A program made the position numbers and the translations under genes. Of a DNA stretch of 64,000 bases, positions 3,093-45,001 are shown in pieces (position 1 is the stretch's first letter; every line of letters starts with the position of its first letter). Where the stretch lies: contig CAYZTU010000001.1 of NCBI GenBank assembly GCA_964481635.1, positions 149,669-213,668 on the forward strand. Direction: 5' to 3'. This DNA is from an uncultured Synechococcus sp. (GTDB lineage: Bacteria; Cyanobacteriota; Cyanobacteriia; Gloeomargaritales; Gloeomargaritaceae). Under the pieces are notes generated by a model, which was given only the letters and a program-made list of their open reading frames with translations, ran no database searches and had not been told where the DNA came from.

Positions 3093-3108
3093 ATTGGTAA
3101 TATAGCAA

Positions 3109-7462: not shown

Positions 7463-7494
7463 TGTCAAAATTGTCAAGAATTTCTATAGCAATC

Positions 7495-7606: not shown

Positions 7607-7680
7607 GTACTTTTGAGCTTAGCTGTTCATTACCCTGAAAATACCAAATAAAAGCATAGTATCTAGCAGAATATTCACGC

Positions 7681-10863: not shown

Positions 10864-10999
10864 CGGATTGGGGAAATTTGATTAAGCTTGGAAGCGTCAA
10901 ACCATTGGTTTATCGCAGTTCACGGCCTTAAATGGAAAGCGAGTGCTACGACTAAACCAAGTACTGAGAGATTCTTAACTTTTTGGTGAGGCGCTCTGT

Positions 11000-13943: not shown

Positions 13944-13958
13944 GGGTCAACCCAGGGG

Positions 13959-22259: not shown

Positions 22260-22293
22260 ATTAGCATGGAGGGTACCGTCAATTTTTAAGCCC

Positions 22294-23637
22294 ATGACCG
22301 CATGGTTGGCTTGGTGGGGGAACCAATGGCGCACACTCACCCTGTGGTGGCGGAGTTTGGTGCAGGTGGTGGCCGATTTGCGCCTAGCGATTGGCCTGCT
22401 GTTGGTGATTGCGGTGGCGAGTATTGCCGGTACGGTGATTGAGCAGGGAGAAACCCTAACGTTTTACCGGGAAAATTATCCAGAACATCCGGCATTATTT
22501 GGATTTTTAACTTGGCAGGTCATTCTTTTTTTAGGATTCAATCAGGTCTATCAAACCTGGTGGTATTTGAGTTTATTAATTTTATTTGGGGCGAGTTTGT
22601 TGGCCTGTACGTCTCGGCGGCAATGGCCTGCCTTGAAAGTTGCCCGTAAGTGGTACTATCACCAGCGACCGGAGCAAATTTTGCGATTGAATTTAAGTCA
22701 AGTCTGCCCGGAAATTTCTATTTCTCAGTTGGCATCTATTTTGCGTCAAAAGGGATATTGGGTGGCTACGGAAAAGGAGAAACTTTATGCCCGTAAAGGG
22801 TTGGCGGGCAAAATTGGCCCGATTGTTGTTCATGCCAGTCTGGTGGTAATTTTAATCGGGGGTTTGGTCGGAGCACTAACCGGTTTTTTGGCTCAAGAAT
22901 TAGTCCCGAGTGGGCAGGATTTTCAACTCAAGAAAGTGATTGAAGCCGGGGCATGGGTGCGGCGTTTACCGCCAGTGCAGGGGCGGGTACATCGGTTTTG
23001 GATTGACTATACAGCGGGGGGAGAGATTGACCAGTTTTACACCGATTTGGGATTGTTAAATGCTGCCGGAGAAGAAGTGACCCGCAAGACCATTCATGTG
23101 AATGAACCTTTGCGGTGGCGGGGGTTGACTTTTTACCAAACCAGTTGGGGTATTCAGGGGGTACGATTGCGCTTTAATAATAGCCCAATTTTAGAACTGC
23201 CCGTTACTCCGTTTACAGCGGGGAATGGCCGGAAATTGTGGGGAACCTGGTTACCCCTAAAACCCGATTTAAGCGAGGGGGTATCCTTGGTAATTCCTGA
23301 CCTACAGGGCTTATTTTTGCTCTACGACCAACAGGGACAATTGTTAACCACCAGCCGGGTAGGAACACCGGTACATATTGGGGGGGTGGATTTAACGCTG
23401 ACCGAATTAGTTGGCAGTACGGGTTTACAAATCAAATCTGACCCGGGTGTACCCATTGTATATTTAGGCTTTGCTGGTTTGATGTTGGGTGTGATGATGA
23501 GTTACATCTCCCATAGTCAGGTGTGGGGGTTACAAATAGAAAAACAGTTATATGTTGGGGGTAAAACCAATCGGGCGCAGGTGACTTTTGAACAGGAATT
23601 TCTCAATATCTTGCAACAATTACAAGCCAGAATATAG
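22294..23637 (+). CDS. ccsB: Cytochrome c biogenesis protein Ccs1/ResB (CcsB).
   Basis: ResB-like N-terminal TM region and a large soluble domain. Length and topology are typical of cyanobacterial Ccs1. Confidence 0.8.
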   Translation: MTAWLAWWGNQWRTLTLWWRSLVQVVADLRLAIGLLLVIAVASIAGTVIEQGETLTFYRENYPEHPALFGFLTWQVILFLGFNQVYQTWWYLSLLILFGASLLACTSRRQWPALKVARKWYYHQRPEQILRLNLSQVCPEISISQLASILRQKGYWVATEKEKLYARKGLAGKIGPIVVHASLVVILIGGLVGALTGFLAQELVPSGQDFQLKKVIEAGAWVRRLPPVQGRVHRFWIDYTAGGEIDQFYTDLGLLNAAGEEVTRKTIHVNEPLRWRGLTFYQTSWGIQGVRLRFNNSPILELPVTPFTAGNGRKLWGTWLPLKPDLSEGVSLVIPDLQGLFLLYDQQGQLLTTSRVGTPVHIGGVDLTLTELVGSTGLQIKSDPGVPIVYLGFAGLMLGVMMSYISHSQVWGLQIEKQLYVGGKTNRAQVTFEQEFLNILQQLQARI

Positions 23638-24846: not shown

Positions 24847-24990
24847 TATAGCAATCCCGATTTGCAAACAAAGATTCTGATAGCTTGCGTGTCGCTTTGC
24901 AACATTAGCTTGCGTGTCGCTTTGCGACATTGGCTTGCGTGTCGTAGCCATAGAATCAAGGCGGGGGCAGTGCCCCCGCGACCGCTATTC
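24847..24990. repeat. MITE-like repeat copy R7, containing a 3x tandem ~23-bp sub-repeat (agcttgcgtgtcgctttgc-aca) and a GGGGGC-AGT-GCCCCC hairpin.
   Basis: Left TIR TATAGCAATCC at 24847. Core is in reverse orientation. Abuts an orphan C-terminal gene fragment at 24744-24830. Confidence 0.6.
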
Positions 24991-25096: not shown

Positions 25097-28000
25097 ATGA
25101 AGTTCATTTCCTCGCTGCGTCATCTGGTTTGGTTTCCCCTGAAGGCGTTAGCGGTGCTGTTTGTCTGTCAGGTGCCGGGGCTGGCATTACCCCAGGGCGG
25201 TCAAGTCACCCAGGGAGCGGCCACGATTCAACAGGTGGGGGATACCAAGCTAAATATCAATCAATCCACTGATAGAGCCGTCATCAACTGGAATAGCTTT
25301 AGCATTGCCCCCCAGGAGTGGGTGAATTTTCAACAACCCAGCAGTACATCAGCGACGTTGAACCGAGTCACTGGAGCTACACCCTCAAGTATTGCGGGCA
25401 GATTAACCGCCAATGGGCAGGTATTTTTGGTAAACCCCAATGGCATTGCGTTTTTACCCACGGCACGGGTGGATGTGGCGGGCTTAGTCGCCAGTACGTT
25501 GAATATCCAAGATACTGACTTCATGCGGGGCGTTTTGCGCTTTGAACAAATGCCAGGGAAACCCCCTGCGAGTGTAGTCAATCAAGGTTTAATTACGGTG
25601 AAAGAAGCGGGTTTTGCGGCCTTGGTTGCTCCCGCCGTGCAGAATAGTGGCATCATTTCCGCTCGCTTGGGTAAGGTCGTTCTGGCATCGGGAACGACGG
25701 TGAGCTTGGATTTCTATGGGGATGGATTATTAAGCGTGACGGTTGACCCCACGTTGGCGGGGCAAATCACGGATATTTATGGGAATAAATTAAATTCGCT
25801 GATTGACAACCAAGGCAATATCACGGCACCGGGGGGGATAGTTACCCTGACGGCTCAGGCGGCTGGTCAGATTGTAGATCATGTGATTAATGTTGGCGGG
25901 ATGATTGAGGCGAAATATGCGGAAAATCGCAATGGCGTAATTGTTCTATCCGGCGGGCAAAAGGTTACGGTTGCGGTAAATGGTGCGTTAGATGTATCGG
26001 GAATTGTATCAGGAGAGAAAGGCGGTAAAGTTACTATCACTGGGGAAAAGATTGCGCTTAATAATGGCACAACCATAGACGCTTCGGGTGATCAAGGCGG
26101 TGGGATTGTCAATATCGGGGGTAGTTTCCAGGGGAAAGGGACGCTACAGAATGCGATAGAAACGACGGTTGCCAAGGATGTCCAAATCAAAGCAGATGCC
26201 CTCACCCAGGGGAATGGGGGGGAAGTGATTGTTTGGGCGGATGGGACGACGAAATTTGAGGGTTTTGTGAGTGCCAAGGGTGGCATTATCACTGGGGATG
26301 GTGGGTTTGTCGAAATATCAGGGAAAGAAGTCTTAAATCTTGCGCCCGGTTGGTCGGGTCGGATTAACTTGAATGCCCCGGCGGGTGTGGCGGGTACTTT
26401 GCTCCTTGACCCCAATGACATTACGATTTCTGGCACAGCCGGAGCGAGTACCATTACCAATCCTGAGAATGCGACCGATTCAGGTAATCAATTATTAGAT
26501 GATGATATTGCGGCATTTTTGGGCGGTAGCAATTTAACGATTCAAACCACGGGCACAGGTGGGGTTGGCACGATCACGATCACTGGCGATGTGAATATCA
26601 CTTGGGGTACATCAAAAACCTTGACCCTCAATGCTGACCGCAATATTGTGATGAACAGTGGTGCAGTGATTCAAAATACCAATGCGGGTGCCACGCCTTT
26701 TGATGCCATAGTCTTTAATGCCAATGGTACGGGTAGCGGTAGTTTTGATGGTATTAAGCTTAACGGCAGTACCTTGGCTACTAATCGAGGCAATATTACC
26801 CTGACGGGGCAGGGCGGTGACACACTGAGCGGCAACCACGGTATCGTTCAACAGTCAGGTGCCCAAGTCAGCACGGTGGATGGCAACATTACCTATACGG
26901 GCAAGGGGGGTAGTAGCTCCGGCGGCGGTAACTTCGGGATTGATTTGAGGGATGCCACCACGAGCATTCGTACCACCGGCACTGGCAACATTACCTTAAC
27001 CGGAATAGGGGGCAGTGGCAGTGATAACAACATCGGCATTAATCAAAGCAGTAATGCCCAAGTCAGCACCATCAATGGCAATATTACCTATACGGGCACG
27101 GGGGGTAGTGGCTCCGACGGTAACTTCGGGATTTCTCTGACTGCTACGAGCATTCGCAGCACCGGCACCGGCAACATTACCTTAACCGGAACAAGCAAAG
27201 GCAATGGAGATGGTAACTCGGGCATCTACCAACAGTCCGCAGCTCAAGTCAGCACGGTGGATGGCAACATTACCTATACAGGCACGGGAGGTAATGGCAT
27301 TGACGATAACTACGGGATTGATTTGGCTGGTACGAACACAAGCATTCGCAGCACCGGCACCGGCAACATTACCTTAACCGGAAAAGGCCAAGGCACTGGA
27401 ACAAATAACTACGGCATCTATCAAATCTTTGATGCCCAAGTCAGCACGGGGGCTGGCAACATCATCTACACCGGCACCGGAGCAGGCACAGCAGATGGCA
27501 TTCGCATTGGCATTATTGGATTTGGCAGTAACGTGATTGGCTCGGCAACTACCACGGGCAATATTAGCCTAACCGCCCTGACCAATGGCCTGACACTCAA
27601 TGATGTTACGGTTCAAACGACTGGGAACCTTACCCTTTCTAGCCCAGGCAACACCAGTCAAAACAGCAGCGGTGGCCTATTCGCCAATGGTTTAGAGCTT
27701 TTAGGAACTGGTTCATTTACCCTTAGCAATGTCAACAACAACATCACCACCCTAGCGGCGGCTACCACCAATGACATTAACTACACGGATGCAAATGGGT
27801 TTGAAATTGGGACGGTGAATACCACCAATGGCGTGAATGTCAGCACAATCAAAAATCTCACCTTGAAAGCCGGTGGAGCAGTTACGCAAACCCAGAAGAT
27901 TACGGCGGGTGGGTTGGAACTCAAGGGAACAGGTAGTTACACCCTCACTAAAAACACCAACAACATCAGTATTTTAGCGGCTAATACTACGAGTAACATC

Positions 28001-31000
28001 AGCTACACGGATACTGATTCCTTCACCGTTGGCACAGTCAATGCTACGAATGGCATTACCAACGATGGAAACTCTACCCTCACAGCGTTGAATAATGGCA
28101 CGATTACCATCAACAAAAACATCACCAACAACGACACAGGCACATCAACCATCACTGTAAATGCTGACAAAAATATCGTAGTTAATTCTGGAGTAGAAAT
28201 CAAAAATACCAGCACAAGTACCACATTTAATGCCATAGTATTTAACGCCAACACCGCCGGTACAGCGACAGGAAACTTCGCAGGGATTACACTGAGTAGT
28301 AATAGTACCTTGAAAACTAATGGTGGTGGTATCAAACTCACGGGCAAGGGCGGAGATACAGGCTCTGATAACTACGGTATTTATCAACTCAATGGAGCGC
28401 AGGTAACTACCGCAAATGGCAATATCACCTATAAAGGCACGGGGGGTAATGGACTTAATTCTAATCATGGTATTAAGTTAGAAGATTCAAATACCCTCAT
28501 CACTACCGGCACGGGTAATATTGAACTGATTGGCACAGGTAATGGCACTGGGAGTACCAACTATGGTATTCAGCAAACGGATAACGCCAAAGTAACTACC
28601 ACCAGTGGCAATATCACCTACACTGGTACAAGTAATGGAACAAGTATAAACAATTTAGGTATCTTTCAGACTACTGGTGCCCAAGTCATCAGTACGGATG
28701 GCAATATCACATTCGATGGTACAGGCGGCAATGGCACAACTGGCAATGACGGCATCTTAATAACAAGTGCTAACACGCTCATCCAAACTACAGGTAAAGG
28801 TGATATCAGCCTCACGGGTACTGGCAAGGGTTCCAACGCTGTGGGAATTGTGCAACAAACATCAGCCAAAGTAGAGACAAATCAGGGCGATATTACTTAC
28901 AAGGGTACGGGGGGCAATACTGGCTCTGATAACTACGGCATTCATCAACTTGCCGGGGCGGAAGTAGTCAGTACAAGTGGCAATATCACCTACAAAGGCA
29001 CGGGGGGTAATGGCACAGAGAATAACTATGGGATTTATTTACTTAATGATGACACCAAAATCAGTTCTAACTCAGGGGCGATTAGTCTCACCGGGATAGG
29101 AAACGGGTCAGGTGATTCTAACAACGGCATTTATCAGAAAAATGGCGCACAGGTGACGACCCAAGGCGGCAACATTACTTACACCGGTACCGGGGGGAGT
29201 GGCACAGATAATAATTACGGTATTTTTCTGAACGGTGCTAACACCAAAATCACCACAACGGGCAATGGCAAAATTGAACTCACTGGCACAAGTAATGGTG
29301 CTGGCAATGATAACTATGGCATTTTTCAACAATCATCAGCGCAGGTGACCACTACTTCGGGCAGTATTAGTTACAGAGGCACGGGGGGTAATGGGACAGA
29401 TAATAACTTTGGTGTTGTTCTGAGTGATGCGAGTACAACAATCAGTTCTGATACCGGGGCAATCTCTATCACCGGCACAGGAAAAGGGTCAGGTGATTCT
29501 AACTACGGCATTTATCAGAAAAATGACGCACAGGTAACTACCGATGGCAACATCACCTACGAAGGCACGGGTGGCAAAGGCACGAATTCAAATTTTGGTA
29601 TTTTGCTGAACGGCACTGGCACCAAAATCACCACAACGGGCAATGGCAAAATTGAACTCACTGGCACAAGTAATGGTGCTGGCAATGATAACTATGGCAT
29701 TTTTCAACAATCATCAGCGCAGGTGACCACTACTTCGGGCAGTATTAGTTACAGAGGCACGGGGGGTAATGGGACAGATAATAACTTTGGTGTTGTTCTG
29801 AGTGATGCGAGTACAACAATCAGTTCTGATACCGGGGCAATCTCTATCACCGGTACAGGAAAAGGGTCAGGTGATTCTAACTACGGCATTTATCAGAAAA
29901 ATGGCGCACAGGTGACGACCCAAGGCGGCAACATTACTTACACCGGTACCGGGGGGAGTGGCACAGATAATAATTACGGTATTTTTCTGAACGGTGCTAA
30001 CACCAAAATCAGCACTACTGGTACAGGCACTATCAACCTGACTGGTACAGCTCAGGGCACAGGTACTGGCATCATAGGCATTAGGCAACAATCGTCAGCG
30101 CAGGTGAGCAGTGTAGATGGCAATATCACCTACCAAGGCACGGGTGGCAACGGCACAAACTTTAACTATGGGATTTTGCTCTTAGATACAAACACCACTA
30201 CTAGCAGTACGGGGAAAGGCACTATCAACCTGACTGGTACAGGTCAGGGCACAGGTAGCAGCAACTTTGGCATTTATCAACTCAATGGCTCAAAAGTAAC
30301 CACCACCGATGGCAATATCATCTACCAAGGCACGGGTGGCGATGGCACAAACTTTAACTATGGGATTTTGCTCTTAGATACAAACACCACTACTAGCAGT
30401 ACGGGGAAAGGCACTATCAACCTGACTGGTACAGGTCAGGGCACAGGTAGCAGCAACTTTGGCATTTATCAACTCAATGGCGCACAAGTCAGCACCGATG
30501 ATGGCAATATCACCTACCAAGGCACGGGTGGCAATGGCACAAACTTTAACTATGGGATTTATTTGCAATCTGTCAACACCAAAATCAGCACTACCGGTAC
30601 AGGGGCGATTAATCTCACAGGTACTGGTAAAGGTTCAGGTAATGATAATTACGGTATCGCCCAATTAGGTGGACCACAGGTAACTACCACCGGTGGTAAT
30701 ATCACCTACATTGGCACGGGGGGAAATGGCACAAGCTTTAACTATGGTATTTTATTGCAGGATACTATTACCACCCTTAGCACCTCTGGTACTGGCAATA
30801 TCAACCTCACCGGCACAGGAAATGGCACTGGTAATTTTAATTATGGTATCGTGCAACAGTCTGGAGCGCAGGTAAATACCACGAAGGGAAACATCAGCTA
30901 CACAGGTACAGGCAATGGCACTGGTGCTAGTAATTTTGGTATCTACCAATTCAATGGAGCGCAGGTAAATACCACCGATGGCAATATCACCTACACCGGC

Positions 31001-32131
31001 ACGGGGGGTAAAGGTGCGGATTCAATACACACCAAAACTGGCACAAACCTAATCGGCAATAACACCACCGGTCAAATTACTTTTACTTCCACAAATAATG
31101 GCATTACTTTCAATGAACTCAAAGTAGAGACTAAGGGTAATATCATCATCACTTCCCCTGGCGATGTCAATCAGAATAACAAGGGCGGACTATTTTCTAA
31201 GGGTTTGGAATTATTAGGTGATGGCAAATTTACGCTAACAAATACAAACAATAACATCGCCATATTAGCGGCCAAGACCAATAATGAAATTCGCTATACT
31301 GATACGAGTGGGTTTGATATAGGCACTGTTAATACCATCAATGGCATCAGCACTACTGGAATTGTGGTTCTCACTGGGAATGGCACCATCACCCAAACCC
31401 AACCCATTACCACCCCAGGCTTAGCCATTTTGGGTTCTGGTGGTGCCACTTTAACTAACACCAACAATCAAATTAGTACCATTGCCGCCGATACCAGTGG
31501 GAACCTGAAAGTAATTACCCAAGGGGATTTAACGGTGGGTGTAGTCAACCCCGATGGCATTGAAAATGCGGCTAGTGTATTTCTGCAAAGCCTCACGGGA
31601 GATATTATTCTTGATGAATCTATCAATGTCACTGGTGGCATTACCCTAGTTGCAGGTAGAGATTTCATCAACAAGGTGGGTGCAGGTGCCTTAAATCTTG
31701 AAGATGGAAGATTTTTAGTTTATGCCACTAGCCCTGAGCCCACGGGAAATTTCCAAGGCTTCTCCGTCCTGAAAGGTTCTCAGCAATTTAATACCACATT
31801 CCCCCAACCCGCTCTGTTCGCAGGCAGTGGCTTTTTGTATAAAGGTTTAGCACCTATTATTCCTGGATTGCCAAGTAGTTCAGTATTCACAGAACCCGTT
31901 ACATTTGTGCTTAATTTCAATGACCGGCAGTGGCGGGATTTAACGGATTTGGGTGAAGCAGTGTTCTTCCCCGAAGCCCTATTGTGCGTGAATGTCCCCG
32001 TGAATCAAACGACGGGTTCACCGCCTTTGACTGACCCCATCATTCTGAGAAGTGAAAATCTACCTGATCTCAATATCCAATGGCAAACAGGTGAACTGCC
32101 TGAGTGTTCTTCCCCAATCGTTGCCGAATAG
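25097..32131 (+). CDS. Two-partner-secretion exoprotein (TpsA; filamentous-haemagglutinin-like). N-terminal signal peptide and TPS domain, followed by about 1400 aa of Gly/Thr/Asn-rich ~38-aa repeats.
   Basis: Conserved TPS motif NPNGIAF. Repeat unit resembles GNITYTGTGGNGTDNNYGI. Near-perfect internal DNA duplications at 29252-29520 = 29622-29890, 29140-29250 = 29890-30000, and 30130-30290 = 30320-30480. Confidence 0.85.
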   Translation: MKFISSLRHLVWFPLKALAVLFVCQVPGLALPQGGQVTQGAATIQQVGDTKLNINQSTDRAVINWNSFSIAPQEWVNFQQPSSTSATLNRVTGATPSSIAGRLTANGQVFLVNPNGIAFLPTARVDVAGLVASTLNIQDTDFMRGVLRFEQMPGKPPASVVNQGLITVKEAGFAALVAPAVQNSGIISARLGKVVLASGTTVSLDFYGDGLLSVTVDPTLAGQITDIYGNKLNSLIDNQGNITAPGGIVTLTAQAAGQIVDHVINVGGMIEAKYAENRNGVIVLSGGQKVTVAVNGALDVSGIVSGEKGGKVTITGEKIALNNGTTIDASGDQGGGIVNIGGSFQGKGTLQNAIETTVAKDVQIKADALTQGNGGEVIVWADGTTKFEGFVSAKGGIITGDGGFVEISGKEVLNLAPGWSGRINLNAPAGVAGTLLLDPNDITISGTAGASTITNPENATDSGNQLLDDDIAAFLGGSNLTIQTTGTGGVGTITITGDVNITWGTSKTLTLNADRNIVMNSGAVIQNTNAGATPFDAIVFNANGTGSGSFDGIKLNGSTLATNRGNITLTGQGGDTLSGNHGIVQQSGAQVSTVDGNITYTGKGGSSSGGGNFGIDLRDATTSIRTTGTGNITLTGIGGSGSDNNIGINQSSNAQVSTINGNITYTGTGGSGSDGNFGISLTATSIRSTGTGNITLTGTSKGNGDGNSGIYQQSAAQVSTVDGNITYTGTGGNGIDDNYGIDLAGTNTSIRSTGTGNITLTGKGQGTGTNNYGIYQIFDAQVSTGAGNIIYTGTGAGTADGIRIGIIGFGSNVIGSATTTGNISLTALTNGLTLNDVTVQTTGNLTLSSPGNTSQNSSGGLFANGLELLGTGSFTLSNVNNNITTLAAATTNDINYTDANGFEIGTVNTTNGVNVSTIKNLTLKAGGAVTQTQKITAGGLELKGTGSYTLTKNTNNISILAANTTSNISYTDTDSFTVGTVNATNGITNDGNSTLTALNNGTITINKNITNNDTGTSTITVNADKNIVVNSGVEIKNTSTSTTFNAIVFNANTAGTATGNFAGITLSSNSTLKTNGGGIKLTGKGGDTGSDNYGIYQLNGAQVTTANGNITYKGTGGNGLNSNHGIKLEDSNTLITTGTGNIELIGTGNGTGSTNYGIQQTDNAKVTTTSGNITYTGTSNGTSINNLGIFQTTGAQVISTDGNITFDGTGGNGTTGNDGILITSANTLIQTTGKGDISLTGTGKGSNAVGIVQQTSAKVETNQGDITYKGTGGNTGSDNYGIHQLAGAEVVSTSGNITYKGTGGNGTENNYGIYLLNDDTKISSNSGAISLTGIGNGSGDSNNGIYQKNGAQVTTQGGNITYTGTGGSGTDNNYGIFLNGANTKITTTGNGKIELTGTSNGAGNDNYGIFQQSSAQVTTTSGSISYRGTGGNGTDNNFGVVLSDASTTISSDTGAISITGTGKGSGDSNYGIYQKNDAQVTTDGNITYEGTGGKGTNSNFGILLNGTGTKITTTGNGKIELTGTSNGAGNDNYGIFQQSSAQVTTTSGSISYRGTGGNGTDNNFGVVLSDASTTISSDTGAISITGTGKGSGDSNYGIYQKNGAQVTTQGGNITYTGTGGSGTDNNYGIFLNGANTKISTTGTGTINLTGTAQGTGTGIIGIRQQSSAQVSSVDGNITYQGTGGNGTNFNYGILLLDTNTTTSSTGKGTINLTGTGQGTGSSNFGIYQLNGSKVTTTDGNIIYQGTGGDGTNFNYGILLLDTNTTTSSTGKGTINLTGTGQGTGSSNFGIYQLNGAQVSTDDGNITYQGTGGNGTNFNYGIYLQSVNTKISTTGTGAINLTGTGKGSGNDNYGIAQLGGPQVTTTGGNITYIGTGGNGTSFNYGILLQDTITTLSTSGTGNINLTGTGNGTGNFNYGIVQQSGAQVNTTKGNISYTGTGNGTGASNFGIYQFNGAQVNTTDGNITYTGTGGKGADSIHTKTGTNLIGNNTTGQITFTSTNNGITFNELKVETKGNIIITSPGDVNQNNKGGLFSKGLELLGDGKFTLTNTNNNIAILAAKTNNEIRYTDTSGFDIGTVNTINGISTTGIVVLTGNGTITQTQPITTPGLAILGSGGATLTNTNNQISTIAADTSGNLKVITQGDLTVGVVNPDGIENAASVFLQSLTGDIILDESINVTGGITLVAGRDFINKVGAGALNLEDGRFLVYATSPEPTGNFQGFSVLKGSQQFNTTFPQPALFAGSGFLYKGLAPIIPGLPSSSVFTEPVTFVLNFNDRQWRDLTDLGEAVFFPEALLCVNVPVNQTTGSPPLTDPIILRSENLPDLNIQWQTGELPECSSPIVAE
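26800..31050 (+). repeat. Intragenic tandem repeat array (~114-bp units) inside tpsA, with recent near-perfect duplications of 110-270 bp.
   Basis: Identical 74-aa shadow ORFs at 29108-29332 and 29867-30091. Long identical DNA stretches are visible directly. Confidence 0.8.
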
Positions 32132-37309: not shown

Positions 37310-39109
37310 ATGGTGCTTTGGCAACAGACCGCTCGCTTGAAGGAATCCCCCTGGGCAGAACCGGGAATTGGCCGGGGGCGGCAGGCGATGGTGCTGATTG
37401 GGGGCATCAGTTTTGTCTTGTTTGCTGGGTTTGGGAGCCGGTTGGCCTACCTGCAATTGGTCAAAGGCCAGGAACACCAGCAGATGGCGGATAGTAACCG
37501 CATTCGCCTGATTCCCAAACCGCCGGACCGGGGGCGGATTTTTGACCGGCAGGGACGTTTGTTGGCGGGCAGTCGCCTGTCCTATTCCGTATTTCTCTGG
37601 CCGATTGCCCAACGCCCCCAGGACTGGCAAAATACCCTTACCACCCTGGCGCAACTGCTGAATATTCCCGAAAAGGAGATGAAAAACCGCCTGGAGCAGG
37701 CCGGTTACTTTTCTCCCTACCTACTGCGCTTGGCGCGGGGGATTGGTCCGGCGCAAATCACCGCCTTGATGGAGCATAGCGACACCCTGCCGGGGGTGAT
37801 TTTGAACGCCGAACCGATCCGCTACTACCCCCAGGGGGAATTGTTCTCCCATGTGCTGGGCTACACAGGGGAAATTAGCGAGAAAGAACTCGAAGCCCGC
37901 CAAAAGGAAAACTACCGCATCGGCGATGTGATTGGCCAAATGGGGGTCGAATCTGCCCTAGAATCCCGCCTGCGGGGGGAGTGGGGGGGGCAACAGGTGG
38001 AGGTGGATGCCCAGGGGCAGGTCTTACGCATCCTGGGGAAAAAGCCTTCCGTGGCGGGGCAGGATGTCACCCTGACCTTGGATTTGGATTTGCAAAAAGC
38101 GGCGGTCAAGGCTCTGGGTACCCGCCGGGGGGCGGTGGTGGCGATTGACCCCAGGGACGGGGCGGTGCGGGCGATGGTCAGTTATCCGGGGTTTGACCCG
38201 AATATCTTTTCCGGGCGGGTCACGCCGCAGCAGTGGCAGGAACTGCAACGCCGGAGTTTTCCCTTTGTGAACCGGGCATTGCAGGGGTATCCTCCCGCCA
38301 GTACGTTTAAGATCATTACCACCACGGCGGCTCTAGAATCCGGTCGCTACCCGGCCAATACGGTCTTGGCGACGTTTCCGTTTTTGACCGTGGGGGGGAT
38401 TCAGTTTTGGGATTGGAATCGGGCGGGGTTTGGGCCGTTGGACTTCACCGGGGCGATGGCCTGGAGCAGTGATACGTTTTTTTATCAGATTGCCCTGGGG
38501 GTGAAGGAAAAACCGATCGCCGAGTGGTCTCGTCGCTACGGGTTTGGGGAAAAAACCGGCATTGAGTTGGCGGCGGAAGAAGCCAAGGGGTTGGTGCCCG
38601 ATGAGGCCTGGAAGCTCAAAAACCTCCAGGAGCCGTGGTACGTCGGGGATACGGTGAATATGTCCATCGGCCAGGGATTTATGCAGACTTCGCCTTTGCA
38701 AGTGGCGGTCATGTTTGCGGTGGTGGCGAATGGCGGTGACCGGGTGCGCCCCCACCTCTACCAAGCTTCCGGGGATAGTCCCAGCCAGTGGCGAACGCCC
38801 CTGGGTCTGCAACCCACCACCATTGATATTTTGAAGCGGGGGTTGCGCCAGGTGGTCACCGGGGGTACGGGTGGAAAATTAAACGTCAGCCATTTACCCC
38901 CAATTGCGGGCAAAAGCGGCACGGCGGAAGACCCCCCCCGCCAGAGCCATACCTGGTTTGGTGCCTACGCCCCGGCGGACAAACCGGAGTTGGTGGTGGT
39001 GGCCTTCGGGGAAAACTCCGGGGGCGGCGGCGGCAGTCTCACCGGACCGATGACCTTGCAGGTGTTAGAAGCCTACTTCGCCCAACAGAAAAAGCAGGGT
39101 CGCCGATGA
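37310..39109 (+). CDS. mrdA: Penicillin-binding protein 2 (class B transpeptidase).
   Basis: Active-site STFK, SSD and KSGT motifs. N-terminal TM helix and dimerisation domain. An alternative start at 37388 (MVLIGGISF) is plausible. Confidence 0.85.
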   Translation: MVLWQQTARLKESPWAEPGIGRGRQAMVLIGGISFVLFAGFGSRLAYLQLVKGQEHQQMADSNRIRLIPKPPDRGRIFDRQGRLLAGSRLSYSVFLWPIAQRPQDWQNTLTTLAQLLNIPEKEMKNRLEQAGYFSPYLLRLARGIGPAQITALMEHSDTLPGVILNAEPIRYYPQGELFSHVLGYTGEISEKELEARQKENYRIGDVIGQMGVESALESRLRGEWGGQQVEVDAQGQVLRILGKKPSVAGQDVTLTLDLDLQKAAVKALGTRRGAVVAIDPRDGAVRAMVSYPGFDPNIFSGRVTPQQWQELQRRSFPFVNRALQGYPPASTFKIITTTAALESGRYPANTVLATFPFLTVGGIQFWDWNRAGFGPLDFTGAMAWSSDTFFYQIALGVKEKPIAEWSRRYGFGEKTGIELAAEEAKGLVPDEAWKLKNLQEPWYVGDTVNMSIGQGFMQTSPLQVAVMFAVVANGGDRVRPHLYQASGDSPSQWRTPLGLQPTTIDILKRGLRQVVTGGTGGKLNVSHLPPIAGKSGTAEDPPRQSHTWFGAYAPADKPELVVVAFGENSGGGGGSLTGPMTLQVLEAYFAQQKKQGRR

Positions 39110-40701
39110 GTCCTGGGCAGACTGGGCTACCGGTGATTTTGCTGGCGAGTCGGGAACCCATCCTGCGTTTGGGGCTATCCCAGTGGCTAGAGCAACAAAA
39201 TTTGGCGCAGGTGGTGACCAGCGACCAACCCGGGGATTTACAAAATCTGCTCAATGAACGGCTACAACAGACCCAGCCCCTGGTAGATGTGCTGGTTTTG
39301 GATTGGGAACTGGCGGATATTCCCCTGTGTGAATCGCTGAAACGCCGTTACCCGCACCTGCCGATTGTCGCCCTCGGCCCCCCGGTGACCCGGGATCAGT
39401 TGCTCCGCTATCAACAATTGGGTTTGGCCGCCTATGTAGAACGATACACACCGGCGGCGACCCTCTGGCAATGGATACAAGCGATTTCGGGTGGCTATTC
39501 CCCCTGGTTGCAACCGGAAACCGTCGCCCCCCGCTGGCGTTCCCAGTTATACCAACAGGGCTTGAGGCAGATTGAGGCGGCACTTGACCAATGTCAGCGG
39601 TGGGCACACCGTCCCCGCCCCTGGCTGGAGCAACAGATCACGCGGGGGCGCATCCGGGAGTTGCACACCGCTCGCCGCCTTTTGACCTGGCTGTGGCGAC
39701 CGGGTGCGGTACTTGCCCCACCCCCCCAAGTCAGCCATCCCCCCCTGGCTCTGCCCCCTGGAGAACGCTTGAGCCGGGTGCGGCAACAGTTCAATCAACC
39801 CGTGACCAACGCCAGCGGTCTGCTGTTGGAAACCGACCTGCTCCGGTTTGAGAAGCAACGGGAACTCTGGAACACCATCCTCACCCGTTGGGAAACCCTG
39901 TTGGCGGAGTTGATCGAAGCCCGCATTACCCCAACCGACCTGGCAAGCCGTTGCTCCGACCTGGTACAACGCCTGTGGCAGGAAGCCCTGACGGATTTTA
40001 TCGGTCGCTACTATACCCTGGACGGCCAGGATGTGATCGATACCCTCCTTGCCCAGGAGGAGACGGTGCGGGGGTTAATTTTGGACAAAATTCCCCTGGT
40101 TTCTGACCTCTTTAATTTTTATCTGTTTCAAAACCCCCTACGGATTGATGAGGTGCTGTACGCAGCCAATAGCCAAATCGCCAGCGACCATGCCGCCATC
40201 TTGCTGGAAAATCTGGTTCTCCAGGTGGCCAATGGGGTGGTGCAACCCTTGGTCAACCGCTTTCCCCACCACGAATCGGTGAAGCAACGATTTTACCGGC
40301 GCAACCTCATCTCCACCCGAGAAACCGAGCGTCTGCGGAATCAACTTTCCCAACGCTATCGCTGGCAACGCTACTGGGACGAACCCCGCGCCATTTTTGA
40401 GAGCCGTTACCAACTCCTGCGGATTCAGAACCAAGCCATTGTCCGCTACCCAGTGTACAGCGGTCGTACTGCTGAACTCGCCCAACTCCAGGGCATTCCC
40501 TGGCTGGTTACCCTGGGGTTGGAATTTCAAGATGCGATTGCTCCGGTACTCCGGGCGGTGGCAAATTATATCGGACGCACCAGTGCTTATCTACTCACCC
40601 GCATTATTGGCCGGGGGTTGGGCTTGATTGGGCGGGGAATTTTGCAGGGTATTGGCAGTACATTGCAAAACAATCGTTCCCGGGAGACTTCCCAGTTGTA
40701 A
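39106..40701 (+). CDS. Degenerate receiver-like (pseudo-REC) N-terminal domain protein with a large C-terminal domain of unknown function (possibly DUF3685/Ycf55-like).
   Basis: N-terminal VILLASREP...VDVLVLDWELADIP...PIVAL resembles a CheY-like fold, but the first acidic residues are replaced. Translationally coupled to mrdA by an ATGA overlap. Confidence 0.5.
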   Translation: MSPGQTGLPVILLASREPILRLGLSQWLEQQNLAQVVTSDQPGDLQNLLNERLQQTQPLVDVLVLDWELADIPLCESLKRRYPHLPIVALGPPVTRDQLLRYQQLGLAAYVERYTPAATLWQWIQAISGGYSPWLQPETVAPRWRSQLYQQGLRQIEAALDQCQRWAHRPRPWLEQQITRGRIRELHTARRLLTWLWRPGAVLAPPPQVSHPPLALPPGERLSRVRQQFNQPVTNASGLLLETDLLRFEKQRELWNTILTRWETLLAELIEARITPTDLASRCSDLVQRLWQEALTDFIGRYYTLDGQDVIDTLLAQEETVRGLILDKIPLVSDLFNFYLFQNPLRIDEVLYAANSQIASDHAAILLENLVLQVANGVVQPLVNRFPHHESVKQRFYRRNLISTRETERLRNQLSQRYRWQRYWDEPRAIFESRYQLLRIQNQAIVRYPVYSGRTAELAQLQGIPWLVTLGLEFQDAIAPVLRAVANYIGRTSAYLLTRIIGRGLGLIGRGILQGIGSTLQNNRSRETSQL

Positions 40702-40755
40702 AGGGTTTAGGCTTACGTTAGGTTTCTTGGTTGTCTGCCCTAGTTGGAGAATTTT

Positions 40756-40850
40756 TATAGCAAAATCATCCAATTAGCGAACAGAAATTGTGAAGAACAG
40801 AAGCGGTATCCCTACAACCTTTGTTCCAAAATCAAGAGGGATTGCTATGG
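40756..40850. repeat. MITE-like repeat copy R9 (TATAGCAAAATC ... GAAGAACAGAAGCGGTATCCC ... GGGATTGCTATGG).
   Basis: TIRs and a partial core. Flanks the 3' end of the coiled-coil gene. Confidence 0.55.
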
Positions 40851-40859
40851 TATCAGCCA

Positions 40860-42608
40860 TCAAGAGTTTCTACGCCTGGGACTAATCAAATGTAAAACAT
40901 AGATAATCAAACCAGCAAAGCCCAACTCTTGATACAAAAAAGTGCGTAGTTGTTTGGATGTACGCTGTCTGCGAAATTCCCGTAGATAACTTTCAAATTG
41001 ACGGATAGCAATCATCTCCTGCTTACATACTTCTAATTGATTGCGTAGAAATCTTGACTCATCTAAAAGTTCGTTAGTTTTCTCTATAATATTATCGGTG
41101 ATTCCCAGTTCATTGAGTTTTTTGGGTATATTCCGAATTGGCTCTAACTCGGAGACAATTTTTTGAACTTGGTCTAAGAGTTTTTGAGTATTGGCTTCGG
41201 TTTGTTGGATGAAATTTTTAACTTGTTCTATTTTCTCCTGTTTAGTGTTTAGCTCAGTAATTGTCTGCTCGGAGAACGCTTTAGCTTGTTGTATCTCTTC
41301 AAGAATGCGTTGCATATCCTGTAAAACGTTCTCTCTGATGCCGAGTTGGTCTAATCTTTGAGGTAGATTCTTGAAATGTTCTAATTCTGAAGTGATTTTC
41401 TGTAGTTCTTGTAATTTCAGTTGAGTATCGGCTTCGGTTTGTTGGATGAAATTCTTGTTTTGCTCTATCCTTTCTTGATTGATTTGCAAATTAGTTAAGG
41501 TCTGTTCGGAAAATGCTTTAGCTTGTTGTACTTCTTCAAGAATACGTTGCATATCCTGTAAAACATTCTCCCTGATACCGAGTTGATCCAACCTTTGGGG
41601 TAAATTCTTGAAATGTTCTAATTCTGCAATGATTTTCTGTAGTTCTTGTAATTTCAGTTGAGTATCAGCTTCGGTTTGTTGGATGAAATTCTTGTTTTGC
41701 TCTATCCTTTCTTGATTGGTTTGCAGATCAGCAATTGTCTGCTCGGAGAACGCTTTAGCTTGTTGTATCTCTTCAAGAATGCGTTGCATATCCTGTAAAA
41801 CGTTCTCTCTGATACCGAGTTGGTCTAACCTTTGGGGTAGATTCTTAAAATATTCTAGTTCTATAATAATTCTCTGTAGCTCTTGCAATTTTAATTGAAT
41901 ATCAGCTTCGGTTTGTTGGATGAAATTCTTGTTTTGCTCTATCCTTTCGTGATTGGTTTGTAGCTCGGTAATTGTCTGCTCAGAAAATGTTTTAGCTTGT
42001 CGCACTTCTCCAAGAATACTTTGCATATCTTGTAAAACATTCTCTCTCATACCAAGTTGGTCTAACCTTTGGGATAGATTCTTAAAATATTCTAGTTCTA
42101 TAATAATTCTCTGTAGCTCTTGCAATTTTAATTGAATATCAGCTTCGGTTTGTTGGATGAAATTTTTGTTTTGCTCTATCTTTTCTTGATTGGTTTGTTG
42201 TTCAGCTAATGTCTGCTCGGAAAATGTTTTAGCTTGCCGTACCTCATCAAGAATGCGTTGTATATCCTGCAAAACATTCTCTTTGATGCCAGATTGGTCT
42301 AGGATGCCAAGTTGATCCAATCTTTGGGGTAAATTCTTGAAAGACTCTAATTCCGATAGAGTTTCGTCTAAGTCTGTTTTTGTTTTTTGTAATAGCTGTT
42401 TATTCAGTTCTAAATCTTGTGAAACAATTTCAATTCGTCGAATAAGTTCACTGACTTCATCAATTTGTTGTGCTTTTTGCAAAACTTCATCAATTTGTTG
42501 TGCTTTTTGCAAGAATTTACTCGCTTTTTCAAGAGCTTCATTAACTTTCTGACAGAGTAATTCTAAGTCCCTTGCAACTTCCAAATCAGTTTTGCTGTTG
42601 TAATCCAT
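40860..42608 (-). CDS. Tail-anchored coiled-coil protein built from about six near-identical 79-aa tandem repeats, with a single C-terminal TM helix.
   Basis: Repeat unit FKNLPQRLDQLGIRENVLQDMQRILEEIQQAKAFSEQTI.ELQTNQERIEQNKNFIQQTEADTQLKLQELQKI..ELE. C-terminal LYQELGFAGLIIYVLHLISPRRR. AT-rich. No match to any family I recognise. Confidence 0.7.
   Translation of the reverse strand: MDYNSKTDLEVARDLELLCQKVNEALEKASKFLQKAQQIDEVLQKAQQIDEVSELIRRIEIVSQDLELNKQLLQKTKTDLDETLSELESFKNLPQRLDQLGILDQSGIKENVLQDIQRILDEVRQAKTFSEQTLAEQQTNQEKIEQNKNFIQQTEADIQLKLQELQRIIIELEYFKNLSQRLDQLGMRENVLQDMQSILGEVRQAKTFSEQTITELQTNHERIEQNKNFIQQTEADIQLKLQELQRIIIELEYFKNLPQRLDQLGIRENVLQDMQRILEEIQQAKAFSEQTIADLQTNQERIEQNKNFIQQTEADTQLKLQELQKIIAELEHFKNLPQRLDQLGIRENVLQDMQRILEEVQQAKAFSEQTLTNLQINQERIEQNKNFIQQTEADTQLKLQELQKITSELEHFKNLPQRLDQLGIRENVLQDMQRILEEIQQAKAFSEQTITELNTKQEKIEQVKNFIQQTEANTQKLLDQVQKIVSELEPIRNIPKKLNELGITDNIIEKTNELLDESRFLRNQLEVCKQEMIAIRQFESYLREFRRQRTSKQLRTFLYQELGFAGLIIYVLHLISPRRRNS
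41050..42300 (-). repeat. About 237-bp tandem repeats (~6 units, above 90% identity) encoding the coiled-coil modules.
   Basis: Near-identical shadow ORFs at 41716-41898 and 41953-42135. The periodicity is visible in the DNA. Confidence 0.8.
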
Positions 42609-42617
42609 AATTAGACC

Positions 42618-44948
42618 TCACATTAATTTGATCCTATCAACAGCTAGTTTACACAAAATAGATACTAGAGGGGAGTCACTGTCTATGGGAAATTCATCAG
42701 CGAAGGGATATTGCTGCTCCTGCAGATGAGACGACCTCACTCTTGCTCTGATACGAGCGGCTTCGTAAGGTAACCTCTTTGCTTCCATTTCGTCAGCAAT
42801 AGCCAAAAGTATCCGATGATACTGTTTGCGGTTTAATGCTCGTATCCTAGATGCTTCGGCAACCGCATCCCAGGAACGGTCTAAGGCTCTCAGCATCAAA
42901 CATCGCAATCCCACTCGGTCTTCAATATCTGTCACTTCCTCCATTTCTCTAAATTGATTTTCCAAGAAATTTGTATCATGCTTTTTGAGTTTTGAAATAA
43001 GCTCTGATTCAACCCCATATATTTTTTCATCACTAGCTTTGATCAAATTTAGAACCGAGTAGGTATCAAAGTATAAATCTGGCACTTGATTGCGTATCCT
43101 ATTTAATACCCCATCAACATTTTCAAATGCACTTTCAGCATTAGATGATTGAGAAATCCAAGTTGCCAAACCATCGAGATGATCATCAGAGGCATCAAAA
43201 AATTCACAGTTCTGTAGCTTTTTTCGACCAATCTTTTCGATTTCAACCGATGTCATAACTACTAAAAGCCGTTGTCTCGGTCGAGTAGCCGCCGTGTACC
43301 AATTATTTGCCTCGACCAGTGATAGCCCTTTCTGTTCCTGGGCAAGAGATAATACAACGCATCCATCAAATTCTCGCCCCTTTGCACCTGCAACGCTCAA
43401 ATAATTGATACTTGGTAGTTGATTTGTCCTGTCTGGGATTTCTTGATCTTTAATATAAATAATGTAGGTTTGATTAGCTAGTCTATTTAACAAAAATCGC
43501 TCTGAATCTTTTGTTGATTTATTTATTTTATCGCTCAGTTTACTCAAAAATTTTTCTACATCATCAGGTGCAGAGACTTCTAATATCTTGATTGCCTCTC
43601 CCACTTCAAAAGCACTCTTAGGATCAGAAGGGGGCGGCGGATGAGCAACGCTATTAATTTTAGCAATTTGGTTTGAAATTTCATTACATATATTGGCAAA
43701 TTCAAGAATTTTCCGGGTGTTTCGATAATTATACTTTAGAGAATAACGCCGATTGAGATGTAGATCGCCCCAGTCAAAATCTACAGGTTGAATGCGTTGA
43801 TTCATGTCTCCCAACAACCAAAGTAAGGTAAAGTGTTGATGTTCTTTCTGCCATCGGCTTAGCATCTTATTACTAATCAATTTAAGTTCTTTGAGGAGAT
43901 AATCCTGCGCTTCATCTATGATAAGTACCGTTGAGTTTCTTGGCGTTATCGTTTCTGGAGTGAGTTTTTGACTTAGTTGTTCTAGAGCATCCACTCGCAG
44001 GATTTTGTTATTTAGATTTTCTTGGAATCTTGTTTTTCTGATCCCGCTAAGCTGTTCTATTTTTTCACGATTTTGTTTATAAAGAATCCGTTGTTGATAG
44101 TTTTTGACACTCTCATCAATTGCGTAAATAAAACTTGTGTATAGCTTTACGTCATTTTCATGTAGCTCGGCTAGATCAGTGATATGAATCCTTTTAGCTT
44201 CTTGTTGTAAGGCAATTTTTTGTTCTTCAATAGTAGCAATTTGAGAAAAGAGTTCCGGGTCTAGGCTTTCGATCCACTGCTCTAAAGTGCCAACAAAAAA
44301 GCTTTCGTTGTCATATTCTTTTTTGATCCGCTTAATCTGTTCATACTCTTGAATATCCCCACAAAGATTTTTAGGTAATATTAAAATGATATTAGAATAA
44401 TACTCATATAAATTGCAGGCCAACAATGCGGCACACACTGTTTTTCCTGTGCCTGGAGAACTTTGAATTAATAAGCTATCAATTTTTTCATGCGATGAAG
44501 AAACATTTAAGCTGGAAAGTAGTTGTTTTTGTTCCTCAGTTAAGCATGGTGAGTAGAGATAGCCGCCATAGAAAAATTGACGTAAAGAACTGGTTTGTGG
44601 AAGTAATTCATACGTGGGTAAATCTTCAACCTTTGTATCCTCAATGCCTAAATCAGCCCAGCTTAACTCCTCTGGCTCCATCTCTTCAATCGCTTGCTCA
44701 ACAGAGCTAAACCTACCTCTATAAACATCTTTCCGATCACCTACTTTGACAACTAAAATAGCATTTTCATCAATTCTTGTCCAAATAATCCTATAATTAC
44801 CTGTACGTGTACGCAATAACTTACTACAACCACTTAGTGCTTTATGTTCTCCAAAATGCCCTTCCCGAAAACGAGTTACTGTGTCTATTACATCAGGATA
44901 CCTCTGTATTCCTAAGATGGCAAAGCGGGTGAACCTGACCGTGTACAT
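42618..44948 (-). CDS. Fusion protein: N-terminal RelE/ParE-fold toxin-like domain (~80 aa), a central SF1 UvrD-like helicase/ATPase core, and a C-terminal ~170-aa unknown domain.
   Basis: N-terminus LSGCSKLLRTRTGNYRIIWTRIDENAILVVKVGDRKDVY matches the RelE/ParE C-terminal signature. Helicase motifs are present: Walker A SSPGTGKTV, motif II VLIIDEAQDY, motif III LLGDMNQRI, motif IV YNYRNT, motif V GAKGREFDGCVV, and motif VI AATRPRQRLLVV. AT-rich. Confidence 0.7.
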   Translation of the reverse strand: MYTVRFTRFAILGIQRYPDVIDTVTRFREGHFGEHKALSGCSKLLRTRTGNYRIIWTRIDENAILVVKVGDRKDVYRGRFSSVEQAIEEMEPEELSWADLGIEDTKVEDLPTYELLPQTSSLRQFFYGGYLYSPCLTEEQKQLLSSLNVSSSHEKIDSLLIQSSPGTGKTVCAALLACNLYEYYSNIILILPKNLCGDIQEYEQIKRIKKEYDNESFFVGTLEQWIESLDPELFSQIATIEEQKIALQQEAKRIHITDLAELHENDVKLYTSFIYAIDESVKNYQQRILYKQNREKIEQLSGIRKTRFQENLNNKILRVDALEQLSQKLTPETITPRNSTVLIIDEAQDYLLKELKLISNKMLSRWQKEHQHFTLLWLLGDMNQRIQPVDFDWGDLHLNRRYSLKYNYRNTRKILEFANICNEISNQIAKINSVAHPPPPSDPKSAFEVGEAIKILEVSAPDDVEKFLSKLSDKINKSTKDSERFLLNRLANQTYIIYIKDQEIPDRTNQLPSINYLSVAGAKGREFDGCVVLSLAQEQKGLSLVEANNWYTAATRPRQRLLVVMTSVEIEKIGRKKLQNCEFFDASDDHLDGLATWISQSSNAESAFENVDGVLNRIRNQVPDLYFDTYSVLNLIKASDEKIYGVESELISKLKKHDTNFLENQFREMEEVTDIEDRVGLRCLMLRALDRSWDAVAEASRIRALNRKQYHRILLAIADEMEAKRLPYEAARIRARVRSSHLQEQQYPFADEFPIDSDSPLVSILCKLAVDRIKLM

Positions 44949-45001
44949 AGGTTACATAACTTAAAATTTGGATGCCCTCATATTTTTACAATACAACTTT
45001 T

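Follow-up and report, generated by a model that had tools for sequence, protein, structure and literature searches.

The stretch of DNA analyzed here (the window; 64,000 nucleotides, nt) stems from an uncultured Synechococcus sp. of the family Gloeomargaritaceae and corresponds to positions 149,669 to 213,668 on the forward strand of contig CAYZTU010000001.1 (assembly GCA_964481635.1). On its minus strand lies a two-gene cassette that an initial annotation, made without database searches, had put forward as a candidate toxin or defense-like module. Both open reading frames (ORFs) are present at exactly the coordinates claimed. Gene 1 (42618..44948) encodes a protein of 776 amino acids (aa) that consists of a RelE-like domain, a superfamily 1 (SF1) helicase core and a TPR-like C-terminal domain (CTD). 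Gene 2 (40860..42608) encodes a 582-aa coiled-coil protein, in the following termed the partner. The two genes are in one frame and are separated by a spacer of 9 nt (42609..42617). A GAGG overlaps the stop codon of gene 1 (TGAGGTCTAATTATG) and is located 7 nt before the ATG of gene 2, which, together with the short same-frame spacer, suggests translational coupling. The cassette was described as an AT-rich operon, and this holds: the GC content is 0.381 for gene 1 and 0.356 for gene 2, compared to 0.589 for the neighboring murG and about 0.59 in the flanks, and the GC content at third codon positions is 0.31-0.32 in the cassette genes compared to 0.64 in murG.

The first 80 residues of gene 1 (44709..44948) constitute the RelE-type mRNA-interferase domain. 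A profile built from 28 N-termini was compared with the PDB and matches, over their full length, Rv2866 from M. tuberculosis (E-value 1.2e-6), aRelE from P. horikoshii (1wmi, 4.2e-6), E. coli RelE (1.7e-5) and YoeB (2e-3). The same profile, searched against 5.8 billion database sequences, finds stand-alone RelE/StbE toxins (PF05016) of 86-93 aa with E-values down to 2.9e-9. The single sequence of gene 1 yields sub-threshold matches only, namely to ParE_toxin in Pfam (0.27) and to TIGR02683 (0.06). The RelE/ParE signature that had been recognized by eye is nevertheless real, as the profile matches to solved RelE structures (1.2e-6 to 1.7e-5) indicate. In an alignment made with HMMER, residues R46, R48, R53, R72 and Y76 are equivalent to K52, K54, R61, R81 and Y87 of E. 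coli RelE, which we take to be the catalytic residues of that toxin. Whether these residues are kept had been named as a check; equivalents occur in 131 to 133 of 134 N-terminal domains from the wider family (R46 in 131, R or K at position 48 in 131, R53 in 133, R72 in 132 and Y76 in 132). The secondary structure predicted by AlphaFold2 for residues 3-71 is beta-alpha-alpha-beta-beta-beta-beta (strand 3-7, helices 8-16 and 18-28, strands 35-37, 44-49, 52-60 and 63-71), with predicted local distance difference test (pLDDT) values of 85-93. By homology, compact fold and catalytic residues, the domain belongs to the RelE branch of the RelE/ParE superfamily and is, as judged from its sequence, a genuine RelE homolog with an intact catalytic constellation. 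The chemistry of RelE is specific to the ribosome and its A site.

The RelE domain is fused to a complete SF1 helicase with intact motifs, as had been stated. The core (residues ~136-575, 43224..44543, minus strand) is a divergent Rep/PcrA/UvrD/HelD-like helicase/ATPase with Q140, the Walker A motif GTGK (166-169), DEAQD (345-349), LGDMNQRI (379-386), YNYRNT (406-411), KGREFD (523-528) and YTAATRPRQRL (551-561). All of these are invariant or nearly so among 89 homologs, with LGDxNQRI and YTxxTRPRxRL as the family forms, and the presence of motifs Q and I-VI on a fold of two RecA domains assigns the protein to SF1. The AlphaFold2 model of the entire protein, based on an alignment of the 89 sequences, has a mean pLDDT of 88 and a predicted template modeling score of 0.84. 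The structural neighbors of the core include the DNA helicases Rep and PcrA as well as HelD and Upf1, which are associated with RNA polymerase or RNA. At the sequence level no close relative was found among solved helicases, the best match (9e-5) being to a C-terminal helicase fragment. The remaining residues 576-776 (42621..43223, minus strand) form an all-helical TPR-like or alpha-solenoid CTD that may serve as a docking module. In some Nostocales helicases (P0026, P0045), (SQKDE)n or 'ELNSQD' insertions are found in the 1B region and in the CTD, and QKDES repeats occur in CTD sequences.

The partner starts with a motif that defines its family (residues 5-42, 42483..42596, minus strand), TDLEVARDLELL...ALEKA...LQKAQ. 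It is followed by tandem repeats with a unit of 237 nt or 79 aa (41184..42301, minus strand; 4.7 copies with 87% matches in Tandem Repeats Finder), which make up a spacer of variable length. A further, degenerate unit can be recognized at the protein level, and the gene also contains a perfect 30-nt duplication. Six near-identical repeats had been counted before; the 79-aa coiled-coil units are confirmed, but their number is about five plus the degenerate one. Close to the C-terminus, a hydrophobic segment (residues 557-575, 40884..40940, minus strand; FLYQELGFAGLIIYVLHLI, followed by SPRRRNS) reaches a hydropathy of 2.09 over 15 residues. It had been taken as a single transmembrane (TM) tail anchor; the C-terminus is indeed hydrophobic, but the stretch is short (LGFAGLIIYVLHLI), which makes a tail anchor probable rather than certain. 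Scans against Pfam, NCBIfam and PADLOC return only noise of the coiled-coil type for gene 2 (SMC, Rad50, LmuB), and no DNA-binding domain was found by the Pfam scan.

The N-terminal motif spans ~38 residues with the consensus [TSN]D.E[IVT]A..LE.L...I..GI..A...L.QA and is the sole element of the partner that is conserved throughout the family. With a hidden Markov model (HMM) of the motif, 49 of 51 partners reach 10 bits or more at their N-terminus and gene 2 reaches 54.6 bits, while reversed and shuffled control sequences stay at or below 7.4 and 6.3 bits, respectively. The motif may be the site by which the partner binds the gene 1 protein. A multivalent scaffold, in which the 79-aa repeats would act as extra docking motifs, was considered and rejected, as internal segments of gene 2 score no higher than 6 bits compared to 54.6 bits at the N-terminus. 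In the partner of Anabaenopsis elenkinii (locus 12507-14024), the N-terminal motif is duplicated in tandem. The coiled-coil sequence itself is highly variable across loci. A hydrophobic tail anchor is found at the C-terminus in 36 of the 51 partners, and four end in a Trp-rich PWWWPxNWWWK tail.

Homologs of gene 1 form 102 clusters at 90% identity, nearly all of them full-length (~780 aa), and cyanobacteria account for all named sources. The N-terminal domain is kept in 97 of these, the other five being fragments, and several homologs carry the Joint Genome Institute (JGI) annotation 'RelE'. A HMMER search of 1.84 billion representative sequences retrieved 85 clusters at E ≤1e-30 and 220 at ≤1e-10. 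A second tier of homologs is longer (810-910 aa), with named members from Thermotogota, Bacteroidales and Calditrichota metagenome-assembled genomes (MAGs). In about 40 of 45 scorable genome loci, an ORF that encodes a coiled coil of 80 aa or more is located directly downstream of the helicase gene. The helicase stop and the partner start are -7 to +59 nt apart, and an overlap of 4 nt is common. The pair is also present in Tanganyikabacteria and Gemmatales loci, and every additional locus inspected, including those of the second tier (Thermotogota), shows the helicase gene followed by a coiled-coil gene. Co-occurrence in other genomes, which had been proposed as a test, is thus given, and the pair is a true conserved operon and not a chance juxtaposition. 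No third gene is conserved beside it across the loci.

The lack of an accompanying small antitoxin gene had been noted for the window and extends to the family. Upstream of the helicase gene no small antitoxin-like ORF is conserved in 41 loci, and a hidden antitoxin at this position was rejected on the same ground. In canonical type II toxin-antitoxin (TA) systems a small DNA-binding antitoxin gene is adjacent; here, the downstream gene encodes a coiled-coil protein of 140-652 aa.

One member of the partner family has already been studied in Synechocystis PCC 6803. On its plasmid pSYSA, slr7080 is followed by slr7081 and slr7082 (helicase), slr7083, slr7084 and then the cmr genes of type III-Bv; the pair is situated between the cas cassettes of CRISPR2 and CRISPR3. 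Slr7083 is the 377-aa product of the gene directly after the helicase homolog, and its N-terminal motif scores 19.6 bits. It shares with gene 2 the position after the helicase gene, the N-terminal motif and the coiled-coil body, but is shorter and has neither a tail anchor nor the 79-aa repeats. On these sequence features, Slr7083 is a member of the gene 2 partner family. It had been chosen for study as a coiled-coil-rich protein and was reported to form filamentous nets in vitro, to localize to the cell periphery and to interact with HmpF in a two-hybrid assay (Springstein et al., PMC7002697). In the motile strain, no clone expressing Slr7083-GFP could be obtained, and deletion of slr7083 led to reduced twitching motility and disturbed division (PMC7002697). 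The protein was called strain-specific and its neighboring genes were not discussed (PMC7002697). Elsewhere, slr7083 is listed as an 'unknown' type III-B-associated cluster, 'C3a168' (Shah et al., PMC6546367), and a proteogenomics paper merely names Slr7080, Slr7081 and Slr7082 as uncharacterized P-loop proteins. A description of the RelE-helicase/coiled-coil pair as a unit was not found in the literature searched.

A close relative that allows a comparison of the locus is Gloeomargarita lithophora, in which RpoC2 is 95% and MurG 81% identical to the proteins of the window. Its cassette is found at the equivalent site, in the order rpoB-rpoC1-rpoC2-epimerase-murG-cassette, with a GC content of 0.375 compared to 0.60 and a protein identity of 69% to the copy in the window. 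The synonymous divergence (dS) of the cassette is 0.83, compared to 0.67-0.76 for its neighbors. Given the shared site and a dS similar to that of the neighbors, the cassette entered before the split of the two Gloeomargarita lineages and not recently; its base composition has not been ameliorated. Purifying selection acts on both genes: the ratio of nonsynonymous to synonymous divergence amounts to 0.23 in gene 1 and to 0.26 in gene 2, as calculated over the first 140 residues of the latter. The repeat region of the G. lithophora partner contains a run of N in the complete-genome locus (10750-11840) and is broken in a second assembly (~11057-11180), so that the annotated partners of 143 and 245 aa are truncated artifacts.

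Across genomes, the neighborhoods of the cassette are mutually unrelated and mostly metabolic, with TA, restriction-modification, TnpB or caspase-like genes nearby on occasion. Plasmid-borne copies were identified by tblastn in Synechocystis PCC 6803 (pSYSA), PCC 6714 and B12 and in Picosynechococcus PCC 7002 (pAQ6) and PCC 7003. About 6 of 57 copies are disrupted; tblastn was used for this count, as some of the genes have non-ATG starts that inflate ORF-based counts. On pSYSA of PCC 6803 (NC_005230.1, 76204-78591), a single in-frame TAG splits the helicase gene into slr7081 and slr7082, and on pAQ6 of PCC 7002 the helicase gene is frameshifted. The enzyme genes of the close relatives PCC 7003 and Synechocystis salina are intact, and the partner gene is intact in both PCC 6803 and PCC 7002 despite the broken enzyme gene. 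Horizontal mobility of the cassette is plausible in view of its GC content, the plasmid copies and the variable contexts. The horizontal acquisition proposed earlier for the window agrees with these three observations, but its further argument from flanking elements is weakened by a MITE on one flank only, and the insertion is not recent. Genes for dynamin-like and DUF697 GTPases are located within 4-10 kb of the cassette in two cyanobacteria that are not related to each other, Calothrix NIES-2100 (locus positions 4416-6326 and 11219-12574) and a Phormidium MAG (locus positions 2123-4084 and 20686-22319), which may be a coincidence.

In the window, murG (with GT28 domains) is encoded upstream of gene 1 at a distance of 53 nt. 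On the other side, gene 2 is followed by a DUF3685/response-regulator-like gene (39106-40701, plus strand, 531 aa), with a strong match to DUF3685 (1.8e-75) and a weak one to a receiver domain, and then by a PBP2-type transpeptidase gene on the opposite strand to the cassette. There is a 4-nt overlap between the stop of the PBP2-type gene and the start of the DUF3685 gene, which is convergent with gene 2. The cassette had been described as inserted between two peptidoglycan genes; this applies to murG on one side, but on the other the DUF3685 gene separates gene 2 from the PBP2 gene. A degenerate copy of an element that resembles a miniature inverted-repeat transposable element (MITE) bounds the cassette just past the gene 2 stop (~40754-40851). 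The MITE-like family has a length of ~120 nt and terminal inverted repeats TATAGCAA...GGATTGCTAT, also given as TATAGCAATCC...GGATTGCTATA. Further copies are found in the window at 3102-3218, 7486-7610 and ~24848-24960, and the 10-mer GGATTGCTAT occurs 5 times compared to 0.14 expected occurrences. The copies near 3.2 kb and 7.5 kb are inverted to each other and bracket ~4.3 kb. MITEs on both flanks, as claimed initially, were rejected: the copy on the gene 2 side stands, but the 53-nt spacer on the murG side contains none. A scan for promoters and terminators predicted fewer sites than in shuffled sequence and was thus uninformative. Farther away, an ORF of 2,344 aa (25097-32131, plus strand) encodes a giant repeat protein; tandem repeats of 192 nt and related ones (direct repeat families D1, D2, D4 and D5) make up most of it.

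To place the family among known systems, the cassette was compared with fusions of similar design. In type II ARMADA, ArmD is a UvrD helicase of the GajB-like kind with a RelE-like domain at its N-terminus and is needed, together with ArmA, ArmB and ArmC, for phage defense in E. coli (bioRxiv 10.1101/2025.09.15.676423). It resembles gene 1 in this combination and sets a precedent for such a fusion as an immune component. The armD gene of E. coli ATCC 8739 was recovered via the published mutagenesis primers; in that genome (NZ_CP022959.1, 4240257-4242371) it is annotated only as 'UvrD-helicase domain-containing protein' and IS1 is located directly downstream. A 48-mer derived from the primers matches 526 of 5,426 complete E. 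coli genomes. When the 704-aa ArmD of ATCC 8739 was aligned to the family profile with hhalign, 78 columns were covered that comprise motifs II-IV only (probability 87%, E-value 4e-6). BLASTP of ArmD against gene 1 yields 30% identity over 81 aa and leaves the RelE domain and the C-terminus unaligned. The Walker A lysine is K266 in ArmD and K169 in gene 1. Unlike gene 1, ArmD has no TPR-like CTD and no coiled-coil partner; it acts with ArmA (a BrxHII-like helicase), ArmB (a PglX-like methyltransferase) and ArmC (a YprA-like helicase), none of which is found among the neighbors in the window or in 12 annotated related loci. As only the generic motifs II-IV align, gene 1 was rejected as an ortholog of ArmD.

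A second precedent is CnuH of type II and III-A CoCoNuT systems, in which a RelE/colicin-D-like 'RNase toxin-like' domain is located N-terminal to the SF1 motor (PMC11090510). CnuH shares with gene 1 the RelE-like domain in front of an SF1 helicase, and it occurs in coiled-coil-rich systems that are predicted to target RNA or ribosomes. It differs from gene 1 in its UPF1-like motor, an SmpB-like OB domain, a coiled coil inserted into the helicase and its McrBC-type operons. The RelE-like domain of CnuH has no sequence similarity to RelE, whereas that of gene 1 is detectable by sequence and retains the catalytic residues. Neither McrB/McrC partners nor an SmpB-like OB domain, as expected for CoCoNuT, were found in the Pfam, NCBIfam and PADLOC scans or among the neighbors.

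A RelE-family nuclease is also found in Cami1, a type III CRISPR effector that combines CARF with RelE and cleaves mRNA at the A site (PMC11229360). In one subset of Cami1, the gene for a membrane protein (Cam3) is always located immediately downstream (PMC11229360). As proposed for gene 1, the nuclease of Cami1 is fused to a sensor domain, in a regulated effector that arrests translation. Unlike gene 1, it depends on CRISPR, its sensor is a CARF domain that binds cyclic oligoadenylate and it contains no helicase; Cam3 has six TM segments and is not a tail-anchored coiled coil. The domain scan of gene 1 and gene 2 detected no CARF or SAVED sensor domain that would identify a type III CRISPR accessory system. 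Type II RelBE systems comprise stand-alone RelE/StbE toxins that share the homologous domain, with matching predicted topology and catalytic positions. In gene 1, in contrast, RelE forms the N-terminal part of a multidomain ATPase of 776 aa, there is no antitoxin of the RelB, Phd or ribbon-helix-helix type, and a large coiled-coil gene is located downstream.

Among the PADLOC models, GajB-type models give weak partial matches in 24 of 31 family members (best ~1e-8), and matches to mad8, RTasHel and AbiO are also seen. Gabija is not indicated by these weak partial GajB matches, as no GajA-like gene is adjacent. That the cassette is none of the named defense systems was confirmed in so far as it belongs to no system of PADLOC 2023 and its matches are of the weak and generic helicase kind. 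The family is separate from ARMADA, Gabija and CoCoNuT, with an analogous design. The architecture is not without precedent, contrary to what had been suggested, since ArmD and CnuH already combine a RelE-like domain with an SF1 helicase. The principle of a RelE-SF1 fusion therefore has precedents, and it is the two-gene system itself that is apparently undescribed.

We favor an interpretation of the cassette as a toxin or a conflict module of the abortive-infection type, be it for defense or for addiction, with odds that appear evenly balanced to us. Anti-phage defense specifically is possible but would be claimed only with hesitation. In a tentative proposal, the pair would represent a new class of two-gene immune or toxin systems, widespread in cyanobacteria and scattered elsewhere, in which an ATP-driven RelE-helicase would halt translation and have a membrane-tethered coiled coil as its scaffold, antitoxin or sensor. 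The N-terminal helix of the partner would dock on the enzyme, probably on its TPR-like domain, and the C-terminus of the partner would usually insert into, or hug, the membrane. The docked partner would thereby keep the enzyme restrained at the cell periphery. The SF1 helicase/ATPase could function as a switch that senses nucleic acids, similar to the helicases in ARMADA, Gabija or Hachiman. Upon release or activation, the RelE domain would enter ribosomal A sites, cut mRNA and arrest translation. In favor of this reading are the RelE homology with its catalytic residues, the invariant helicase motifs, the purifying selection, the conserved operon and the accessory, mobile character of the cassette, as well as Cami1 (PMC11229360), ArmD (bioRxiv 10.1101/2025.09.15.676423) and CnuH (PMC11090510) as earlier cases of RelE or RelE-like domains in immune effectors and, for Slr7083, its peripheral position and the failure to bring a GFP fusion construct into the motile strain (PMC7002697). 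The toxicity, the trigger, the binding of enzyme and partner including its surface, and the role against phages are what we infer in this scheme. A purely structural role is disfavored because the catalytic residues of RelE are strictly conserved. A core housekeeping role is disfavored by the patchy, plasmid-borne and occasionally pseudogenized pattern with foreign GC content.

Several observations weigh against a conflict module of this kind. None of the PADLOC (2023) system models matches either protein, and no phage-borne homologs were found in 50,697 phage records. The partner does not resemble a classical labile DNA-binding antitoxin, and in 11 of the 51 partners, Slr7083 among them, both the tail anchor and the Trp-rich tail are missing. 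The motility and cytokinesis phenotypes of Slr7083 were interpreted as cytoskeletal (PMC7002697), and knock-outs of slr7080-slr7084 left type III-B interference unimpaired (PMC6546367). That two Gloeomargarita lineages have stably inherited the cassette at a single site, with a neighbor-like dS, would fit any useful function. A position in defense islands, which had been suggested as a check, is not the rule: chromosomal copies lie mostly amid housekeeping genes, an observation that is not decisive in cyanobacteria.

An alternative is a plain addiction or stabilization module. The cassette would then be an atypical TA pair with the toxin gene first, its coiled coil a stoichiometric antitoxin, and it would persist selfishly on plasmids and chromosomes with no role in immunity. 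A tight two-gene operon headed by the toxin is the arrangement of higBA-type systems, in which the toxin gene also comes first. The RelE toxin domain with its intact catalytic residues, the plasmid locations and the frequent inactivation of the toxin gene next to an intact partner (6803, 7002) agree with such a module. We nevertheless consider it unlikely, as the partner is large, membrane-anchored and devoid of DNA-binding or degron-like features. In addition, the helicase and TPR appendage of ~700 aa with strictly conserved ATPase motifs would be superfluous for addiction and suggests an activity that depends on a signal.

A physiological role in quality control, rather than a defense or selfish one, is doubtful to a similar degree. 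In such translation surveillance close to the membrane, ribosomes that are stalled or mislocalized at the plasma or thylakoid membrane would be the target of the RelE domain, the mRNA would be stripped or fed by the SF1 motor and the tail-anchored coiled coil would hold the enzyme near membrane-bound ribosomes. This would account for the ribosome and A-site specificity of RelE (as in Cami1, PMC11229360), for HelD, which clears stalled RNA polymerase, among the closest structural relatives of the motor, for the housekeeping neighbors, and for the stable inheritance under purifying selection beside murG in two Gloeomargarita lineages. However, a patchy distribution, plasmid copies, foreign GC content and pseudogenization of ~10% are atypical for a core quality-control factor. 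The spacer range of 140-652 aa and the anchorless partners speak against a precise geometric role, and none of the neighborhoods inspected showed a connection with tmRNA or rescue genes.

The published work on Slr7083 raises the question of a function in the cytoskeleton or in motility, in which the partner would form filaments under the membrane and influence twitching motility as well as division, the helicase would be a recruited DNA- or plasmid-handling enzyme and the RelE-like domain would merely bind nucleic acid or the ribosome. The nets in vitro, the peripheral localization, the two-hybrid interaction with HmpF and the reduced motility on deletion (PMC7002697) concern a protein that carries the family motif (19.6 bits) and directly follows a helicase homolog. 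The experiments were, however, performed in a strain with an in-frame stop in the helicase gene, so that the intact system was not probed. For a mere binding module, one would not expect each of the five catalytic residues of RelE to be retained in 131 or more of 134 domains, as they are here. Moreover, the coiled-coil region is the least conserved part, length-variable and repeat-expanded, unlike structural cytoskeletal proteins, and the family is missing from most cyanobacteria, which together render this explanation quite improbable. An accessory component of type III CRISPR-Cas, suggested by the location of the pSYSA pair between the CRISPR2 and CRISPR3 cassettes and by the listing of slr7083 as a type III-B-associated cluster (PMC6546367), is largely refuted by the neighborhood survey and hardly credible, as CRISPR genes are missing from the vicinity of nearly all other loci, type III-B interference remained intact in the slr7080-slr7084 knock-outs (PMC6546367) and a CARF or SAVED sensor domain is absent.

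RelE domains are classic toxins that depend on the ribosome. With regard to a regulated toxin or immune module, the fact that more than 100 lineages have RelE hard-wired to a helicase motor and combined with a coiled coil anchored in the membrane suggests a translation shut-off that is regulated and spatially confined. The system may have been overlooked because both PCC 6803 and PCC 7002, the common laboratory strains, carry a broken enzyme gene. For the model organism Synechocystis 6803, a concrete new hypothesis on Slr7083 is gained: if the pair does constitute a new immune or toxin class, Slr7083 would be its regulatory subunit, and the published motility and division phenotypes would need to be reinterpreted. 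If it is a defense system, a compact two-gene type would be added to the poorly charted immune repertoire of cyanobacteria, and the family would provide a third independent RelE-SF1 fusion beside ArmD and CnuH, which would point to a recurrent design principle.

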